Source of the DNA: a virus
Lineage: Duplodnaviria; Heunggongvirae; Uroviricota; Caudoviricetes
DNA: 11,059 bases
IMG/VR virus record: IMGVR_UViG_2690316115_000019
Direction: 5' to 3' (one strand)
Shown here: positions 2,606 to 10,524 of the stretch, one piece after another
Layout: every line of letters starts with the position of its first letter
How positions within the stretch are numbered: position 1 is the stretch's first letter
Notes under the pieces: generated by a model
Told to the model about the DNA's origin: nothing
The model's input: only the letters and a program-made list of their open reading frames with translations
Database searches by the model: none
Translations under genes and position numbers: made by a program

Positions 2606-2908
2606 ATGAAGATTATCTCAGTTAAAACACTCAGGGATTTTTGGGCGGAGAATCCTGATGCAGAACAACCGCTAAGGGCATGGGTGGATGAGGCGGCAAA
2701 AGCTGACTGGAAAAGCCCAGCAGACATTAAGGCACAATACCGAACGGCCAGTATATTGAAAAACCGGCGCGTGGTATTCAACATAAAAGGTAATCATTAC
2801 CGTTTAATTGTTGCAATTGCGTATCAGCGAGGATGGGTATTTGTTAAATTCATCGGAAACCACAAGGAATACGATACTATTGATGCTGATACCATCGAAC
2901 TGGAGTAA
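2606..2908 (+). CDS. higB: HigB-family type II toxin (mRNA interferase, RelE/ParE superfamily)
   Basis: 100 aa from ATG 2606. C-terminal pattern FNIKGNHYRLIVAIAYQRGWVFVKFIGNHKEYD resembles E. coli HigB/YgjN (GN..R....V.FIGTHKEYD). It is followed 2 nt later by a HigA-like gene. No clear Shine-Dalgarno, so the start is uncertain (track ORF begins at a TTG at 2561). Confidence 0.75.
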   Translation: MKIISVKTLRDFWAENPDAEQPLRAWVDEAAKADWKSPADIKAQYRTASILKNRRVVFNIKGNHYRLIVAIAYQRGWVFVKFIGNHKEYDTIDADTIELE

Positions 2909-2910
2909 GC

Positions 2911-3270
2911 ATGAACATCAAACCTATTCGTACAGAGCAAGATTATGAAGCCGCGTTGCGTGCTGTTGAACCCATGTTCGACAATGAGCCCGAAATTGAC
3001 ACGCCTGAGGGGGATTTTTTTGAGGTGATGTGTTTGCTAATAGAGGAATATGAAAAAAAACATTATCCCATTGAGCCACCATCCCCAATTGAAGCTATAA
3101 GATTTCGCATGGAACAGCAGGGGCTGACTGTGAAAGATTTGGAACCCGCAATTGGGAAAAAAAATCGGGTTTATGAGGTGTTGAATGGTACCAGAAGCCT
3201 TACGTTACCAATGATTCGCCGTCTTCATAATCAATTTGGTATCCCCCTGGAAAGCCTGGTTGGATTATAA
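2911..3270 (+). CDS. higA: HigA-family antitoxin (XRE-type helix-turn-helix)
   Basis: 119 aa. C-terminal helix-turn-helix segment LTLPMIRRLHNQFGIPLESL resembles E. coli HigA/YgjM (LTLEHAKKLATRFGISPALF). Toxin-first gene order with a 2-nt gap is typical of higBA. Confidence 0.75.
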   Translation: MNIKPIRTEQDYEAALRAVEPMFDNEPEIDTPEGDFFEVMCLLIEEYEKKHYPIEPPSPIEAIRFRMEQQGLTVKDLEPAIGKKNRVYEVLNGTRSLTLPMIRRLHNQFGIPLESLVGL

Positions 3271-3286
3271 AATCTGCTAGTCATTT

Positions 3287-3335
3287 GCCTGATGCTCGTT
3301 CCAGAAAAGGAATGCATCAGGCAGTTTTGTTTTTC
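3287..3335 (+). terminator. Intrinsic terminator after higA; overlaps the 3' end of the convergent repressor gene
   Basis: 9-bp inverted repeat GCCTGATGC (3287-3295) / GCATCAGGC (3313-3321), followed by AGTTTTGTTTTTCT (3322-3335). Confidence 0.55.
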
Positions 3336-3709
3336 TGCCGCAGTAACTCTTCAAGTTTCCGTTTATAGAAATCGCGTTTTTGCTCCATATCACGAATGAT
3401 CTGCTCTGCGTCGCTTTGAGGTAACTCATCTAAAAGCGATATGATTTTTCGTTGTTGTTCTGTAAGTTGCGGTTGGTTGTCATTACTGGATACAGCCATT
3501 TTATCGCCGAGAGTTTCTTCTTCCATAAAGAACCAATGGACGGGATGTTGTGAGAGCTCTGCTAATTTTTCCAGTTTATCCATTCTTGGCATCACGCCTT
3601 TCAACCAACCTTGCACGGATTGGGGTTTTACACCAAGACGTCTTCCCAGCTCTGACTGGTTTATATTCAATTCCTGCAACACCTGCTGAAGGCGTTTTAC
3701 AAAGATCAT
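3317..3709 (-). CDS. DicA/CI-like prophage repressor (N-terminal helix-turn-helix, C-terminal dimerisation-like region)
   Basis: ATG at 3707-3709 with GAGGGG upstream (track ORF starts two GTG codons earlier). Segment NQSELGRRLGVKPQSVQGWLKG is a helix-turn-helix. The C-terminal LTEQQRKIISLLDELPQSDAEQ...KLEELLRQK aligns with the DicA C-terminus as recalled. It is divergent from a Cro-like gene. Confidence 0.75.
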   Translation of the reverse strand: MIFVKRLQQVLQELNINQSELGRRLGVKPQSVQGWLKGVMPRMDKLEKLAELSQHPVHWFFMEEETLGDKMAVSSNDNQPQLTEQQRKIISLLDELPQSDAEQIIRDMEQKRDFYKRKLEELLRQKNKTA

Positions 3710-3763
3710 CACCACCCCTCGTAAACTAGTTCCGCGATCCTACAGAAAAAATTGATAAGTGGC

Positions 3764-3804
3764 ATTACAAATAGAAGTTGAAATTTAAATTTAAATTTGT
3801 AATT
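3764..3804. promoter_or_regulatory. Immunity-region operator/promoter block (OR-like) between the divergent repressor and cro-like genes
   Basis: ATTACAAAT (3764-3772) and ATTTGTAAT (3795-3803) are inverted copies. Tandem AAATTT repeats lie at 3781-3798. A candidate rightward promoter has -35 TTGAAA (3778-3783) and -10 AATTAT (3801-3806) overlapping the right site. GGAGGG precedes the ATG at 3836. Confidence 0.55.
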
Positions 3805-3835
3805 ATCGGTGTCATCGTAAAGTTCGGAGGGAAAC

Positions 3836-4096
3836 ATGCAAAAAAGTACTCAAGTGAAAATCCTGTCAATAATGAGCCAATCAGAATTAGGGCGTCGTCT
3901 TGGTAAAACACCGCAAACCATAAGTGGGTGGTTTAAAAAACGAGTGCCAGCGGAGGAGGTTATACCAGCATGTGAGGCGCTTGACTGGGGAGTAACTCCG
4001 CATGAATTGCGCCCTGATAAATACCCTAATCCAACCGATGGTTTACCTGTTGAGTATCAGGCTAACGCACAAGCAGCGGCGGGAGTTGATTCATGA
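3836..4096 (+). CDS. Cro-like helix-turn-helix regulator of the YdaS/DicC family
   Basis: 86 aa with a GGAGGG RBS. SQSELGRRLGKTPQTISGWFKK...ACEALDWGVTPHELRPD resembles Rac YdaS (recalled). Confidence 0.7.
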   Translation: MQKSTQVKILSIMSQSELGRRLGKTPQTISGWFKKRVPAEEVIPACEALDWGVTPHELRPDKYPNPTDGLPVEYQANAQAAAGVDS

Positions 4097-4518
4097 AAAT
4101 CAAGCATGAACACATCCGCATGGCGATGAATGTCTGGGCGCATCCGGACGGCGAAAAAGTGCCGGCTGCGAAAATTACCAAAGCGTATTTCGAGCTGGGA
4201 ATGACGTTCCCGGAACTGTATGACGACAGCCATCCGGAAGCCCTGGCCCGTAATACCCAGAAAATTTTCCGTTGGCTGGATAAAGACACCCCTGATGCTG
4301 TTGAAAAAATGCAGGCTCTGTTACCGGCGATCGAAAAGGCGATGCCGCCTTTGCTGGTGGCCCGTATGCGCAGCCACAGTTCTGAATATTACCGTGAGAT
4401 CGTCGAACGGAGGGATCGGCTGGTGAAGGATGTCGATGATTTTGTTGCGTCAGCGGTTGTTTTGTATGACCAGATGAATCGCGGCGGCCCGGCAGGGAAT
4501 GCTGTGGTGATGCACTAA
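4093..4518 (+). CDS. YdaT-like protein (CII-like regulator/toxin family of Rac-type prophages)
   Basis: 141 aa. Its start overlaps the upstream stop (ATGA at 4093-4096). N-terminus MKIKHEHI matches my recollection of YdaT. GGGAG RBS. Confidence 0.6.
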   Translation: MKIKHEHIRMAMNVWAHPDGEKVPAAKITKAYFELGMTFPELYDDSHPEALARNTQKIFRWLDKDTPDAVEKMQALLPAIEKAMPPLLVARMRSHSSEYYREIVERRDRLVKDVDDFVASAVVLYDQMNRGGPAGNAVVMH

Positions 4519-4540
4519 AAGCACGGTGTTCGGGGGTTTT

Positions 4541-5503
4541 ATGAGCAGCAAGCTTCATGGTCTTGTCTGGGAAGGGTGCGCCTTCACCGGCATGATCTTA
4601 TCCAGGGTGGCGGTTATGGCCCGTCTTGCAGACTACAGCAATGACGAGGGCGTGTCATGGCCTGCCATTGAAACTATCCGGCGTCAGATCGGTGCAAGAA
4701 GTGAATCCACAGTGAAATCGGCTATTGCAGAACTGGCGAAAGAGGGCTGGCTGACGAAGGAAGAGCGTAAGGTCGGTGGGCGTAATGTAAGCAATATCTA
4801 TCGGCTTAATGTGGAAAAACTCGAAGCAGCTGCGGCGGCGGCGCGTGAGTCATATAAACCGAAAAGAAAAATTAGCCCGGCAAAAAATGACCCGTTAACA
4901 GTTGACCCGTCAAATATTGACCCCTCAACGGTTGACCCGTCAAATTTTGATGGATCAACTGTTGATAAAAAACTGCCGATTAGGGGGCCGATGATTGACC
5001 CCGATCCGTCAGTATTAAAACCTGATCCGTCAGATAAAAGATCTTCTTGTCCGGACGCTTCGCAACCGGACCCGCAGACGGCTGAACAGGATTTTTTAAC
5101 CCGACACCCTGACGCGGTTGTGTTCAGTGCGAAAAAACGCCAGTGGGGAAGTCAGGAAGATTTGGTGTGCGCACAGTGGATCTGGGGACGAATCGTGAGT
5201 CTTTACGAGCAGGCGGCCAGCTATGATGGCGAGATCACTAGACCGAAAGAACCCAACTGGACAGCATGGGCCAATGACGTTCGCACAATGCGGATGCTGG
5301 ATGGCAGAACTCACAGACAAATTTGTGAAATGTTTGGGCGTCTCCAGCGGGATTCGTTCTGGGTAAAAAACATCATGAGTCCGGCAAAACTCCGGGAAAA
5401 ATGGGATGAACTGGTTATCCGCCTGGGGCGTTCGCCTGCGCAGCGTTGCGTGAATCACATTTCTGAACCGGACACTGAAATACCGCCGGGATTCAGGGGG
5501 TGA
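4541..5503 (+). CDS. Phage replication initiator: N-terminal winged-helix/helix-turn-helix domain, repeat-rich linker, C-terminal DnaT-like domain
   Basis: ATG at 4541 (track ORF from GTG at 4526). The C-terminus ...VNHISEPDTEIPPGFRG matches the E. coli DnaT C-terminus as recalled (...SEPDSQIPPGFRG). The N-terminus has a helix-turn-helix-like segment (WPAIETIRRQIGARSESTVKSAIAELAKEGWL). It is followed immediately by a DnaC-like gene. Confidence 0.75.
   Translation: MSSKLHGLVWEGCAFTGMILSRVAVMARLADYSNDEGVSWPAIETIRRQIGARSESTVKSAIAELAKEGWLTKEERKVGGRNVSNIYRLNVEKLEAAAAAARESYKPKRKISPAKNDPLTVDPSNIDPSTVDPSNFDGSTVDKKLPIRGPMIDPDPSVLKPDPSDKRSSCPDASQPDPQTAEQDFLTRHPDAVVFSAKKRQWGSQEDLVCAQWIWGRIVSLYEQAASYDGEITRPKEPNWTAWANDVRTMRMLDGRTHRQICEMFGRLQRDSFWVKNIMSPAKLREKWDELVIRLGRSPAQRCVNHISEPDTEIPPGFRG
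4887..5033. repeat. Iteron-like 15-bp direct repeats containing the palindrome TTGACCCGTCAA, embedded in the replication initiator gene (candidate origin)
   Basis: GTTGACCCGTCAAAT at 4901-4915 and again at 4931-4945. Degenerate copies: ATTGACCCCTCAACG (4916-4930), TGACCCGTTAACA (4888-4900), GATTGACCCCGATCCGTCAG (4992-5011), CCTGATCCGTCAG (5021-5033). A-rich spacers lie between them. The repeats encode the VDPSN(I/F) peptide repeats. Confidence 0.55.
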
Positions 5504-5509
5504 CGTGTC

Positions 5510-6256
5510 ATGAAAAACATTGCGGCAGTTGGGGTTCTTGAACGTATTCGCAGACTTGCACCACAGGGGTCGGTTCCACCGTACCGGACGGTGGAGGAGT
5601 GGCGGGAATGGCAACTTGCTGAAGGACGAAAACGCAGCGAGGAGATTAACCGCCAGAATCGCCAGTTGCGGGTGGAAAAAATCCTGAATCGTTCGGGCAT
5701 CCAGCCTCTGCACAGCAAATGCTCGTTTGCAAATTATCAGGTGCAGAACGACGGGCAAAAATACGCGCTGAGCCAGGCCAAATCCATAGCTGACGAACTG
5801 ATGACCGGGTGCACGAATTTTGTGTTCAGCGGTAAAACCGGCACCGGGAAAAATCACCTTGCAGCGGCGATGGGCAACCGGCTGATGGTGAAGGGGAGAA
5901 GCGTGATTATCGTCACCGTGTCTGACGTCATGAGCGTGTTGCATGACAGCTACGACAACGGCAAATCCGGGGAAAAATTTTTACAGGAGCTTTGCGGGGT
6001 TGATTTGCTGGTCCTGGATGAAATAGGCGTTCAGCGGGAGACGAAAAACGAGCAGGTGGTATTGCACCAGATAATTGATCGCCGGACAGCATCACTGTGC
6101 AGTGTCGGGATGTTAACAAACCTGAATCATGCCGCAATGAGCACGCTTCTTGGTGAGAGGATTATGGACCGCATGACCATGAACGGTGGTCGATGGGTGA
6201 CGTTTAACTGGGATAGCTGGCGTCCAAATGTCAGCAATATGAGGGTTGTGAAGTAA
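5510..6256 (+). CDS. DnaC-like replicative helicase loader (AAA+ ATPase)
   Basis: 248 aa. Walker A is GKTGTGKNHLAAA and Walker B is LLVLDEIG. It is alignable along its length to E. coli DnaC as recalled (NRSGIQPLH, FANYQV, MLTNLN, LGERIMDRM, FNWDSWR). Confidence 0.85.
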   Translation: MKNIAAVGVLERIRRLAPQGSVPPYRTVEEWREWQLAEGRKRSEEINRQNRQLRVEKILNRSGIQPLHSKCSFANYQVQNDGQKYALSQAKSIADELMTGCTNFVFSGKTGTGKNHLAAAMGNRLMVKGRSVIIVTVSDVMSVLHDSYDNGKSGEKFLQELCGVDLLVLDEIGVQRETKNEQVVLHQIIDRRTASLCSVGMLTNLNHAAMSTLLGERIMDRMTMNGGRWVTFNWDSWRPNVSNMRVVK

Positions 6257-7642: not shown

Positions 7643-8329
7643 ATGACCCCAATAAAAATATTTATGACTATTGCTGATTTCAAACGGCCTAAATTGGAGC
7701 TTCCAAACGGGGCAAACAAACTACTACTGCACTCTTGCTGTGCTCCATGTTCCGGTGAAGTGATGGAGGCGCTTCAGGCCTCGGGAATCGACTACACCAT
7801 CTTTTTCTACAACCCGAACATTCATCCTCAGAAAGAGTATTTAATTCGTAAGGATGAAAATATTCGCTTTGCTGAACAACACGGCGTGCCGTTTATCGAT
7901 GCTGATTACGACACCGACAACTGGTTTGAACGTGCCAAAGGAATGGAATGGGAGCCTGAGAGGGGGATCCGTTGTACCATGTGTTTTGACATGCGTTTTG
8001 AGCGGACAGCGTTGTACGCTGCTGAAAATGGTTTCAGTGTGATCAGTAGTTCACTGGGCATTTCACGCTGGAAAAATATGCAGCAGGTTAACGAGTGTGG
8101 GCGGCGAGCTGTTGCGCATTATCCGGGTATGGTGTACTGGGATTATAACTGGCGCAAGCAGGGCGGCTCGTCCCGTATGATTGAAATCAGCAAGCGCGAA
8201 AAATTCTATCAGCAGGAATATTGTGGCTGTGTGTATTCTCTGCGCGATACCAATCTACACCGCAAATCTCAGGGACGCCCTCTTATCAAAATTGGCCAAC
8301 TCCACTACGGAAAAGAAGAGAAGGAGTGA
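7643..8329 (+). CDS. QueH-like (DUF208) protein, putative Fe-S epoxyqueuosine reductase family
   Basis: Motifs [11 protein letters not shown] near the N-terminus, CTMCFD mid-protein and [10 protein letters not shown] near the C-terminus fit DUF208/QueH as I recall it. The start could be ATG 7643 or 7664; neither has a good RBS. Confidence 0.6.
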
Positions 8330-8399
8330 TTTTATGGATCACCTTTCTGATTGATTTCATATTGGCGAGGTGACGTGAGTTAAGTAGAATTGCTGCGGG

Positions 8400-8424
8400 T
8401 GCCTGAGGCTGTCTGCCTCAGGCA
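8400..8424. repeat. Perfect 10-bp inverted repeat (TGCCTGAGGC ... GCCTCAGGCA) with 5-nt loop, between the QueH-like and methyltransferase genes; no T-tract
   Basis: 8400-8409 and 8415-8424 are exact reverse complements. No U-run follows on either strand, so it is not a canonical intrinsic terminator. Confidence 0.5.
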
Positions 8425-8507
8425 TGAACACCAAAAGGCAGATAGAGAAAGCCCCAGTTAACATTACGCGTCCTGTAAGACGCTCAACATTAATCTGAGG
8501 CATATGG

Positions 8508-9632
8508 ATGCGGATGAAAGAATTAAATAAATTCAGAGTGATAGACCTCTTTTGTGGGGCAGGTGGATTATCTTATGGTTTTCTTCATGGAGAGATGTCT
8601 GACTACTTTGAAAGTATCCTTGCTATTGATAATAATGCTGCAGCTATAAATACCTACAATGCCAATTTTGGTTTGCATGGAGTTCAGGCAAATATTGAGG
8701 AGTGGGCATCCAGCAATACTGTTCCTGAGGCTGATGTGGTCATAGGTGGCCCCCCGTGTCAGGGATTCAGTTTATTGAATAAGAATCGTTATGGTGATCA
8801 CCGAAGAGCATTGTGGGAGCCTTATATGGATGTCATTGAGCGTTCAAGGGCTTGTATGTTCGTCATGGAAAATGTCCCCGGATTGCTGATAAGCGATGAG
8901 TTTGCGGACATTACGTTTAGAGCGAAATCCATGGGCTTTATTCTGCTTAATCCAATGGTGTTGAATACTGCTGACTATGGAGTACCTCAGACAAGAAAAC
9001 GAACGATAGCAATCGGTATCAAACGAGAACTCTTCGATGTGCATAGTATTCCGGCGTTCCCGCCAGCACCAACGCATCGTTCCCCTGATAAGGATGTCGC
9101 TTTGCCTGAATGGGTCTGTACGCGTGATGCAATTGGTGACTTACCTGCTCCTGTTGGAACTGATATTCGTAATGAACTTCCTCCGCTGAACTTACATTTT
9201 GGGCGTAATCCCACTCCTGTTTCTCTGGAGCGATATAAAGCGGTTCCACCAGGAGGTAACCGTTTCGATTTACAGAAAAAAAGACCTGATATAACCCCGG
9301 CGTGCTGGCTAAAAAAGAAATCTGGAGGGACCGATTTGTTTGGACGTCTGTGGTGGGACAAACCTTCAGTAACGATTCGTACTGAGTTTTTCAAACCGGA
9401 GAAAGGGCGATATTTACATCCGGAAGAGGATCGGCCAATAACTCATCGTGAGGCAGCGAGATTAATGTCTTTTCCTGATAATTTCATTTTTACCGGTTCA
9501 AAAACTGAGATTGCAAAGCAGATCGGGAATGCTGTTCCACCGCTATTTGCGGCAAAAATCGCACAATATGTGTATGGAGTTTTGCAGGGACGGTATAAGA
9601 ATAACATCAGTAAGAATAGTCAAGCAGCCTGA
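8508..9632 (+). CDS. DNA (cytosine-5)-methyltransferase
   Basis: Motif I DLFCGAGGLSYGF, motif IV GGPPCQGFS, motif VI ENVPGL, motif X QIGNAVPP. GAGG RBS 8 nt before ATG 8508. Confidence 0.9.
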   Translation: MRMKELNKFRVIDLFCGAGGLSYGFLHGEMSDYFESILAIDNNAAAINTYNANFGLHGVQANIEEWASSNTVPEADVVIGGPPCQGFSLLNKNRYGDHRRALWEPYMDVIERSRACMFVMENVPGLLISDEFADITFRAKSMGFILLNPMVLNTADYGVPQTRKRTIAIGIKRELFDVHSIPAFPPAPTHRSPDKDVALPEWVCTRDAIGDLPAPVGTDIRNELPPLNLHFGRNPTPVSLERYKAVPPGGNRFDLQKKRPDITPACWLKKKSGGTDLFGRLWWDKPSVTIRTEFFKPEKGRYLHPEEDRPITHREAARLMSFPDNFIFTGSKTEIAKQIGNAVPPLFAAKIAQYVYGVLQGRYKNNISKNSQAA

Positions 9633-9645
9633 AGGAAATCCAGAA

Positions 9646-10524
9646 ATGAATGGAGATTTGGTTGACAGCATAGTTGGTTTTGCTGAAGCCAGAAAGGAGT
9701 TTCATGCCCAATTGTTACTGAATACGCTCACAATTAATACTGCCGGAGTTGTTAGTAACGCAGATAGCAGTAACAAAAACAGTAAAGCTATAGCAAGAGA
9801 AATTGCTCGCTTCTTGCAGGCTGAAACGATTGGTGAACGTGTTGCAGGGCAAACATCTGGTAATCAGTTTGAGAGTATCTGCGCAGAGTTTATAGAAAAA
9901 ACCTTTTTTAAACTCAGCCACTTACGCCCTGGAAAATGGAATGTACATCAGGTTTCTGGTAGAAACAGATTAGAGATAGCTAAATATGAACAATATGCCC
10001 ATCTTATAGCATTGGATAGTGCTGCAAAAAGTAATCCTCAGCTAGCTGCTGCACTGGGGAGTGATTATACGATTTCACCAGATATTATTGTTGAAAGAGA
10101 ACCTGAATGTGATCAAGTTATCAACAGTCCTGAATTACTGGTGGATGATTCTGTTACCCGCATGTCAGCTCTCAGGAGTTCGAATGGTGGGAAACCAATA
10201 TTACACGCAAGTATTTCCTGCAAATGGACAATAAGAAGCGACCGGGCCCAGAATGCTCGTTCTGAGGCATTAAATCTTATTCGCAACCGTAAGGGAAATC
10301 TCCCTCATGTAATGGTTGTTACTGCTGAGCCTACTCCAAGTCGTCTGGCGTCTATTGCTCTTGGTACTGGTGATATAGATTGCGTGTATCATTTTGCGCT
10401 TTATGAACTTATATCAGCAGTTGAAATACTGGGGCTCAGCGATGCAGCTGACATGCTTTCCGTGATGGTTAATGGTAAAAGATTAAAGGATATTTCTGAT
10501 CTTCCCTTGGATCTTGCAGTCTGA
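9646..10524 (+). CDS. Putative type II restriction endonuclease, Cfr10I/NgoMIV/Bse634I-like active-site arrangement
   Basis: ATG 9646 with GAAGGAAA RBS, 13 nt after the methyltransferase stop. The spacing of putative catalytic residues is PD (SPDIIV), then S-x-K (ISCKW) 45-47 residues later, then E exactly 14 residues after the K (RSEALN), as in Cfr10I-family enzymes (recalled). Gene is AT-rich. Confidence 0.55.
   Translation: MNGDLVDSIVGFAEARKEFHAQLLLNTLTINTAGVVSNADSSNKNSKAIAREIARFLQAETIGERVAGQTSGNQFESICAEFIEKTFFKLSHLRPGKWNVHQVSGRNRLEIAKYEQYAHLIALDSAAKSNPQLAAALGSDYTISPDIIVEREPECDQVINSPELLVDDSVTRMSALRSSNGGKPILHASISCKWTIRSDRAQNARSEALNLIRNRKGNLPHVMVVTAEPTPSRLASIALGTGDIDCVYHFALYELISAVEILGLSDAADMLSVMVNGKRLKDISDLPLDLAV

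Follow-up and report, generated by a model that had tools for sequence, protein, structure and literature searches.

Where does a lambdoid prophage of Escherichia coli begin its own replication when its initiator carries a DNA-binding domain other than that of lambda O? The question is raised by a stretch of 11,059 nucleotides from the Caudoviricetes record IMGVR_UViG_2690316115_000019 of IMG/VR (hereafter the window, meaning the whole stretch that was analysed), which is the early region of such a prophage and encodes a replication initiator of 320 amino acids (aa). A preliminary description of the sequence had proposed a candidate prophage origin within this gene, and comparative data support the proposal: about 4886-5050, within the stretch of the initiator gene that encodes the linker, is in our judgement the replication origin of the prophage, with a probability of roughly 0.77, and it is from these comparisons that we infer both origin activity and binding by the initiator. 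The design is well known, a lambda-type origin placed inside the initiator gene, and the sequence comparisons support its assignment to a new sequence class, with a new type of iteron and a new class of N-terminal domain. The elements on which the argument depends, numbered from the first letter of the window, are the following.

4541-5503, + strand: replication initiator gene, 320 aa (open reading frame, translation, PHROG 391)
4541-4852, + strand: N-terminal winged helix-turn-helix (HTH) domain, aa 1-104 (Pfam HTH_36, AlphaFold2)
4856-4886: A-rich tract, 65% A+T, left of the array, with a very degenerate unit at 4871-4885
4886-4975: iteron array of six in-frame 15-bp units, codons 116-145 (repeat tools, resampling, family conservation)
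4886-4900: unit 1, degenerate in-register copy AATGACCCGTTAACA
4916-4930: unit 3, degenerate in-register copy ATTGACCCCTCAACG
4946-4960: unit 5, inverted-orientation copy TTTGATGGATCAACT
4961-4975: unit 6, degenerate and A-rich copy GTTGATAAAAAACTG
4897-4963: large dyad of the array, 33-nt arms (repeat search, folding)
4976-5002: G+C-rich spacer, 37% A+T
5000-5033: CCYGATCCGTCAG twice, at a distance of 21 bp, both copies with the palindrome CTGAtccgTCAG and a GATC (Dam) site
5003-5050: A+T-richer segment, 63-68% A+T, with GATC at 5003, 5024 and 5040 and the module junction AAAAGATCTTCTTGTCC
5072-5425, + strand: C-terminal domain, aa 178-295 (BLASTP homology to lambda O and phi80 gp15)
5438-5500, + strand: C-terminal tail, aa 300-320, ending IPPGFRG (SEPDTEIPPGFRG) (weak DnaT likeness)
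5510-6256, + strand: DnaC-like helicase-loader gene, directly 3' of the initiator gene (NCBIfam, Pfam, PHROG 50)

The array comprises five to six units built on TTGACCCGTCAA, a core found at 4902 and 4932, each unit containing a 12-bp near-palindrome (TTGAC-CC-GTCAA). The two exact and several degenerate 15-bp repeats reported at the outset were recovered from the sequence itself, by repeat tools and by motif counts: the exact 15-mer GTTGACCCGTCAAAT stands at 4901-4915 (unit 2) and again at 4931-4945 (unit 4), Tandem Repeats Finder returned 4867-4965 with a period of 15 (5 copies) and a period of 30 (2.5-3 copies, score 96-101), and the window has five occurrences of the motif TGAYNNRTCA where 0.79 would be expected, all but one of them inside 4903-5032. 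The fifth unit, TTGATGGATCAA, is an inverted copy, like the reverse-complement units of relatives, and the array as a whole is a chain of TTGAC/GTCAA half-sites whose orientation alternates each 7-8 bp. It is spanned by a 33-nt imperfect inverted repeat (4897-4929 versus 4931-4963, 79% complementary), and this dyad folds as single-stranded DNA at -16.9 kcal/mol, compared with -6.6 +/- 2.0 in shuffles (z = -5.0). Pairing is found at 22 of the 25 arm positions of the units, so the tandem repeats with dyad symmetry expected of a lambda-type origin are present, and they lie where such an origin has them, within the initiator coding sequence and between the N- and C-terminal domains. Read as protein, codons 116-145 give NDPLT VDPSN IDPST VDPSN FDGST VDKKL. 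The A-rich DNA said to lie nearby is there as well, both in the tract at 4856-4886 (65% A+T) and at 4962-4975 (79%), and the spacer at 4976-5002 holds a degenerate inverted unit, TTAGGGGGCCGA (TTAAGGGGTCAA in relatives), together with the half unit ATTGACCCC.

Repeats inside a gene may be kept for the peptide or for the DNA, and the preliminary description had named DNA-level conservation in homologues as a check; it held under resampling, across 49 loci, and in reverse-complement and out-of-frame copies. When the peptide was fixed and synonymous codons were redrawn from the usage of the family itself, 11.1 +/- 2.6 palindromic pairs were obtained instead of the 22 of 25 observed in the window, and for the two of the five arm pairs that fall purely on third-codon positions, 9/10 were paired against 2.6 +/- 1.4 (P = 5e-5). 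For a wider view we used 80 loci from 80 species of Enterobacterales picked solely by conserved N-domain peptides, a criterion blind to the presence of repeats. In 78/78 relatives with a full-length gene the N-domain is followed at once by an in-frame array of 15-bp units; the remaining two loci, L088 and L124, are truncated open reading frames that end before or inside the array. Among 49 non-redundant loci (N-domains below 85% nucleotide identity), the commonest synonymous codon over 56 conserved N-domain columns reached only 0.50 on average, a sign of silent-site drift, whereas in the units Ser1 was TCT in 0.89 and Asp2 was GAC in 0.82 of cases, and at codon 5 Lys was AAA in 142/142, Glu was GAA in 51/51 and Asn was AAT in 34/35. 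Ser4, with TCA at 0.95, was left out of the evidence because TCA had served to set the register. The information profile of the unit is opposite to that of coding DNA: third-codon positions 3 and 15 hold 1.31 and 0.76 bits, and the middle codon, which specifies Ala, Pro, Gly, Thr, Leu, Arg, Val and others, holds 0.27-0.67 bits at each of its three positions.

Orientation and reading frame point the same way. The clade of the window has 27 units of the TTGACCCCTCAA type, which encode xDPSx, and 19 that are its exact reverse complement, TTGAGGGGTCAA, and encode xEGSx, the '+' units tending to come first and the '-' units last. Units of TTAAGGGGTCAA are out of codon phase in L103 and L148, and the conserved TTTTCACCCGTCAGAATCTG is read as GFHPSES in most loci and as VFTRQNL in L162 (Citrobacter sp. 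NCU1, motif at about 2936-2965), the same VFTRQNL peptide being present in the Salmonella protein P0037. L162, P0037, L103 and L148 are natural frameshift experiments in which the DNA was kept and the peptide was not. The repeats are thus constrained as DNA beyond coding needs, as would be expected of a lambda-type origin.

In a lambda-type origin the repeats should also change together with the N-terminal DNA-binding domain, and this is what the relatives display. Many E. coli genes and phage mEp460 share with the window the C-domain only (86-91% nucleotide identity from query position 496), and weaker C-domain-only matches begin at query position 463, which places a breakpoint at window 5003-5036, just 3' of the repeats. 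At the equivalent place mEp460, with an unrelated N-domain, has GGTCAAAATG-type repeats, and Min27, with a distant HTH_36 N-domain, has GGTGGGGCAGGAGCTGCCC three times. In module exchange the array therefore moves along with the N-terminal winged-helix domain. Iteron subtype also follows N-domain clade, with nTTGAS units making up 29/48 in the clade of the window and TCTGAY units 124/231 in the large clade, which is consistent with co-evolution. Close E. coli relatives (P0055-P0079) carry 2 to 6 units in exact 5-residue steps, with protein lengths of 305, 310, 315 and 320 and of 329 aa in the six-unit P0079, and a 21-bp element (the 7-residue DPSVLKP) occurs once or twice in E. coli relatives and is missing in P0067 and P0073. 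Across the family the number of units ranges from 2 to about 11. This variation among E. coli relatives has a counterpart in lambda, with 4 iterons, and Shiga toxin (Stx) phages, with 6 (PMC7466680). As to scope, a first viral-contig scan matched only 100% identical copies, and a first protein search, with a 110-residue query, returned mostly fragments.

What kind of protein would read these repeats? PHROG 391 ('replication initiation O-like') covers the entire initiator (E 4e-115), and some database entries for its family are named 'Replication protein 15'. An AlphaFold2 model built on 30 homologues has an N-domain of four helices, a beta-hairpin wing and a fifth helix, and Pfam HTH_36 scores 27.9 bits there against a cut-off of 25; a winged-helix fold is thus supported, and we presume this domain to be the one that binds the iterons. 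Phage_rep_O (PF04492), the N-terminal domain of the lambda O family, was not matched by the protein at E <= 0.01, so by this comparison the protein falls outside that family as defined by its N-terminus. Foldseek searches of the PDB with the model returned only generic winged-helix regulators and DnaD-N, all at E > 0.001 and with no specific initiator relative, and the target-normalised template-modelling (TM) scores of the winged-helix DNA-binding matches were mostly 0.4-0.68. The interdomain-linker location of the array is confirmed by the model, because residues 109-170 have a predicted local distance difference test (pLDDT) score below 50 and are predicted to be disordered.

The preliminary description had set this linker between an HTH domain and a DnaT-like domain, and the second half of that statement needs correction: the C-domain is of the lambda O/phi80 gp15 type, and only the last 21 residues or so resemble DnaT. 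BLASTP pairs aa 153-300 with aa 145-277 of lambda O (35% identity, E 5e-26), and aa 183-304 have their counterpart in aa 174-285 of phi80 gp15 (36% identity, E 4e-26), so the C-terminal domain can be assigned to the lambda O type. In lambda, the C-terminal domain of O is the part that contacts the loader. AlphaFold2 predicts this domain to be helical, with pLDDT mostly 78-95, and the tail to be disordered. The tail (aa 300-320) matches positions 159-179 of the NCBIfam DnaT model at E 0.004, with 16.7 bits against a cut-off of 201, and the DnaT chains 2ru8, 6aep and 9zbt of the PDB at E 0.01-0.03 over 21 residues; the initiator does not match the DnaT family as a whole protein or over a whole domain in these sequence searches. 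Such genes are annotated 'primosomal protein I' probably because of the weak tail match. The tail might mimic DnaT and so engage the host DnaB/DnaC machinery. A DnaT-like tail is also kept in SfIV (IPAGFRG) and in mEp460. Since the N-domain families differ from those of lambda O and phi80 gp15 while the C-domains are homologous, the gene reads as a mosaic of an HTH_36 winged-helix domain, its own repeats and a lambda-O-type C-domain.

The parallel with lambda is closer than the preliminary description had suggested, since the C-domain is homologous to that of lambda O and the repeats occupy the same codons as the lambda iterons. In the lambda record (NC_001416) four iterons are annotated inside gene O at about codons 117-145, against codons 116-145 for the units of the window, and the phi80 record (JX871397) marks four binding sites for gp15 within gene 15, again in the linker-coding region; by alignment of these records, the array is positionally equivalent to both. 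Lambda and the window are further alike in that each repeat is an imperfect inverted repeat, in having an A+T-richer stretch after the repeats (weaker in the window and with conserved GATC sites), in their helicase-loading partner gene directly downstream, and in the upstream order of repressor, cro-like gene and gene in the cII position. They differ in that lambda O has a Phage_rep_O N-domain (E 6e-36) rather than HTH_36, in that the lambda repeat TCCCTCAAAACGAGGGA is unrelated to TTGACCCGTCAA, in that lambda iteron starts are 20, 24 and 23 bp apart whereas the units of the window recur every 15 bp in step with the reading frame, in the loader (P in lambda, DnaC-like in the window), and in the extra DnaT-like tail of the window protein. 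Likewise, phi80 gp15 has a Phage_rep_O N-domain (E 6e-25), TTCCCGAAAACGGGAA-like iterons spaced by 20-21 bp and a lambda P-like partner, gp14, all unlike the window, whereas its post-iteron sequence AGTATTAAAAGATCTTCGTCCG resembles window 5011-5053.

The nearest likeness is to SfII, SfIV, e14-like phages and many Enterobacterales prophages of PHROG 391, whose HTH_36 N-domains are 52-74% identical to that of the window and which share with it the 15-bp in-frame array and the conserved GATCCGTCAG-bearing segment; their commonest unit is TCTGAC-nnn-TCAAAA rather than nTTGAC-ccn-TCAAnn, and many of them have other C-domains. In SfIV (2690-4122) and vB_EcoM-689R6 (2978-4410) a PerC-like or YfdN-like gene follows the initiator and no P-like or DnaC-like loader gene is annotated beside it, so loader recruitment may differ there, perhaps with host DnaC recruited directly. 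Among plasmids, RepE of F, pi of R6K and RepA of pPS10 combine, as the window does, a winged-helix initiator, tandem iterons and an adjacent unwinding region (PMC4980987). Iteron plasmids are otherwise the opposite of the window, with iterons outside the rep gene, a usual spacing of ~22 bp, and direct rather than palindromic repeats, and the sequence relationship to them was compared solely via generic winged-helix fold matches. What distinguishes the element of the window is its HTH_36 N-domain, its 15-bp codon-phased palindromic units, its GATC-bearing right half and its DnaC-like loader.

The right half deserves separate treatment. Some 70 bp to the right of the array (about 4994-5050 in the window) are conserved across iteron subtypes and different C-domains, and in 38 non-redundant loci the third-codon positions of this segment carry 1.30 bits against 1.42 and 1.43 at the first and second, compared with 0.73 against 1.60 and 1.75 bits in the N-domain by the same measure. 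In an alignment of 48 loci the sequence CCYGATCCGTCAG is retained in every iteron class of the family, and the window has CCCGATCCGTCAG at 5000-5012 and CCTGATCCGTCAG at 5021-5033. Two GATC sites, with window counterparts at 5003 and 5024, are kept in 32/38 loci; with those at 4953 and 5040 they make four sites in 91 bp (4953-5043), in a window that is otherwise GATC-poor (27 sites versus 41.5 +/- 6 in shuffles). The conserved pair suggests control by Dam methylation. The consensus of the segment is TTTsACCCGTCAGAATCTGG-GGGGATCCGTCAGTA-N9-GATCCrTCAGATAAAAAA (window 4994-5050, GATC 21 bp apart). Iteron 4 of lambda ends with the codon for residue 145 of O, which makes window 4997-5050 the positional equivalent of the AT-rich region next to the lambda iterons, and we propose 5003-5050 as the unwinding region. 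The A+T-richest 30-40 nt of the gene, 4942-4982 (70-77%) and 5009-5050 (68%), flank or overlap the array and are moderately rich. The junction AAAAGATCTTC(T)TGTCCGGAcGCTTCGCAACCGGAC at 5034-5060 is common to mEp460 (locus L163, about 1500-1545) and SfIV and is partly shared with phi80 gene 15 (locus L166, 8770-8800); it coincides with the mosaic breakpoint and may act as a recombination linker between modules.

The conservation of this segment admits a different division of labour, in which it would be a universal core origin, common to differing iteron specificities and C-domains across Enterobacterales; it would serve as the unwinding or helicase-loading site, gated by Dam methylation and SeqA, and the array would be coated by a continuous winged-helix filament rather than by one dimer per iteron, unlike the lambda O-some. 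Taken jointly, these propositions seem to us unlikely.

For the lambda-type origin that we favour, the following course of events can be envisaged by analogy with lambda and phi80. Dimers or oligomers of the winged-helix N-domain would bind the units cooperatively and bend or distort the DNA, and the neighbouring A+T-richer, GATC-bearing segment at about 5003-5050 would then melt. The lambda-O-type C-domain, perhaps with the DnaT-like tail, would recruit the DnaC-like loader (5510-6256), which would in turn put host DnaB on the origin, and, as happens in lambda, rightward transcription from the cro-side promoter would run across this site. Through the codon phasing of its units the array doubles as a pentapeptide repeat (xDPSx), which would sit in a disordered linker tolerant of changes in copy number.

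Several points weigh against this reading. An origin for the initiator family of the window is not described in the literature searched, including the papers on SfIV, SfI and Eru, the SfIV and SfI genome papers themselves describing none. With 15 bp from centre to centre, the units are packed more closely than the iterons of lambda (20-24 bp) or phi80 (20-21 bp), so that one winged-helix dimer on every unit would be crowded. A strongly A+T-rich unwinding element is absent from the gene, the richest 30-40 nt reaching 68-77%. The tracking of clade by subtype rests on two or three evolutionary events and was not counted as a test; likewise, within-array DNA identity exceeded the synonymous null significantly in 41/49 loci and was not relied on as independent evidence, because recent duplication gives the same signal. 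Finally, the prophage may be defective, and its origin then possibly inactive in situ.

How do the other explanations fare? The region might be an element constrained as DNA and yet not an origin, namely a set of operator-like regulatory or copy-control sites, or a recombination junction for module exchange. DNA-level constraint by itself does not identify a function, the 3' part (AAAAGATCTTCTTGTCCGG...) is common to differing N- and C-domains and lies at the mosaic breakpoint, and the lack of a strongly A+T-rich stretch would be no difficulty for such an element. However, lambda and phi80, whose initiators have a homologous C-domain, carry their annotated iterons at the equivalent position, and the repeats change whenever the N-domain does, as expected of sites bound by that domain. 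A promoter and terminator scan of 3700-5600 reported the cro/repressor intergenic region only and no promoter-like site in or near the array, and iteron replicons normally carry copy control and origin function on the same sites; we therefore regard this explanation as improbable.

Selection for a nucleic-acid structure, either an mRNA hairpin acting on translation or decay or a priming or loading signal in single-stranded DNA, would account for the low folding energy of the array, and the order of '+' before '-' units in the clade of the window does make a global dyad. In the larger clade, however, the units mostly share one orientation and the central triplet is free, which leaves little long-range pairing, and a copy number of 2 to about 11 is ill-suited to a defined structure. 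The Rfam search of the whole window found no family in the initiator gene. A hairpin in unwound origin DNA would in any case be compatible with an origin rather than an alternative to it, and as a separate explanation the structure is very unlikely. Least credible of all is a flexible xDPSx linker whose likeness in DNA stems from slippage or codon bias: exact codon phasing in a Pro/Ser/Asp-rich, predicted-disordered linker, copy-number shifts in 5-residue steps and the similarity that recent duplication can leave within an array would all suit it, but it fails, on the sequences at hand, the tests of resampling, relatives, synonymous sites, orientation and frame, since the synonymous sites of the units are nearly fixed across distant genera while those of the N-domain have drifted, the central codon varies in amino acid between third positions that are fixed on either side, a unit and its reverse complement specify unlike peptides, one and the same motif is translated in more than one frame, and third-codon-position palindromic pairs stand far above the synonymous null.

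Some candidates were examined and set aside. DnaA boxes (TTWTNCACA with at most 1 mismatch) numbered 23 in the search against 24.4 expected, which is the level of chance, and the sole perfect box, at 4810-4818, was accordingly given no weight. An iteron-like palindrome with two mismatches at 2526-2537 is what chance predicts, with ~0.8 expected by our own estimate. YdaU of the Rac prophage was considered as a guide and is of a different initiator type (DUF1376), so oriJ is no guide to the origin of the window.

The initiator is very common in E. coli, including O157:H7 prophages, with relatives across Enterobacterales. Copies with 100% identity occur in many E. coli chromosomes, and at least part of the gene is matched in 3265/5426 complete E. 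coli genomes, one with an O157:H7 prophage beside ynfA among them. Placing the origin offers a testable site for the induction, replication and incompatibility of co-resident lambdoid prophages in pathogenic E. coli, and the initiator, origin and DnaC-like loader together form a compact candidate replicon for vectors. The array is also a clear example of dual coding, in which the same 15 bases make a predicted protein-binding palindrome and a pentapeptide, and its reverse-complement and frame-shifted copies reveal which constraint dominates. The general picture of lambdoid replication is unchanged, and a specialist would expect an origin at this place.

Two of the loci are circular records. 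NZ_CP148542.1 (L168), a circular 'plasmid' of 15,977 bp in a canine E. coli strain, consists solely of the early and late-control region of the prophage, with repressor, cro, initiator, DnaC-like gene, DUF1627, DUF977, hokD, rusA, Q and lysis genes and no plasmid replication gene listed, and could be a natural lambda-dv-like mini-replicon that uses a window-type origin. Its initiator gene is frameshifted across 5002-5035 in the assembly, possibly by homopolymer errors, and for that reason the record proves nothing on autonomous replication. OR902858.1 (L169), a 15.2-kb circular record, resembles an e14-type element after excision, with an icd fragment, mcrA, an invertase and tfaE, and has at 3701-4252 a truncated N-domain homologue (67% identity over 79% of the query).

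The genes around the initiator complete the lambdoid order.

3317-3715, minus strand: repressor gene
3836-4096: YdaS/Cro-like gene
4093-4518: YdaT-like gene, in the cII position
3' of the DnaC-like gene: DUF1627 and DUF977 genes

The product of 5510-6256 matches NCBIfam PRK12377 (E 1.4e-152, 506 bits against a cut-off of 389), the DnaC equivalog model (E 2.2e-89, 299 bits, under its cut-off of 357), Pfam IstB_IS21 (E 7e-19) and PHROG 50, and by these family models it belongs with the DnaC/IstB AAA+ proteins expected of a DnaC-type loader. Opposite the initiator and DnaC-like genes runs an unsupported antisense open reading frame of 282 aa (5096-5944, - strand), which is probably spurious. Just upstream of the prophage repressor lie a HigB toxin gene (2561-2908, +, Pfam E 8e-33) and an HTH_3 antitoxin-like gene (2911-3270, +), and the DicF small RNA is found at 1287-1338 on the - strand (Rfam, 71.5 bits). 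Further downstream, a homologue of the QueH epoxyqueuosine reductase (7643-8329, +, E 1e-65), to our knowledge unusual in a prophage, is followed by a C5 cytosine DNA methyltransferase gene (8508-9632, +, E 4e-54), which forms with an NgoMIV-family restriction enzyme gene (9511-10524, +, E 1e-126) a restriction-modification cassette in the nin-like region. A sok antitoxin-like RNA at 8397-8577 (+, Rfam 61 bits against a threshold of 59) overlaps the start of the methyltransferase gene and may be the remnant of a hok/sok locus displaced by the cassette.

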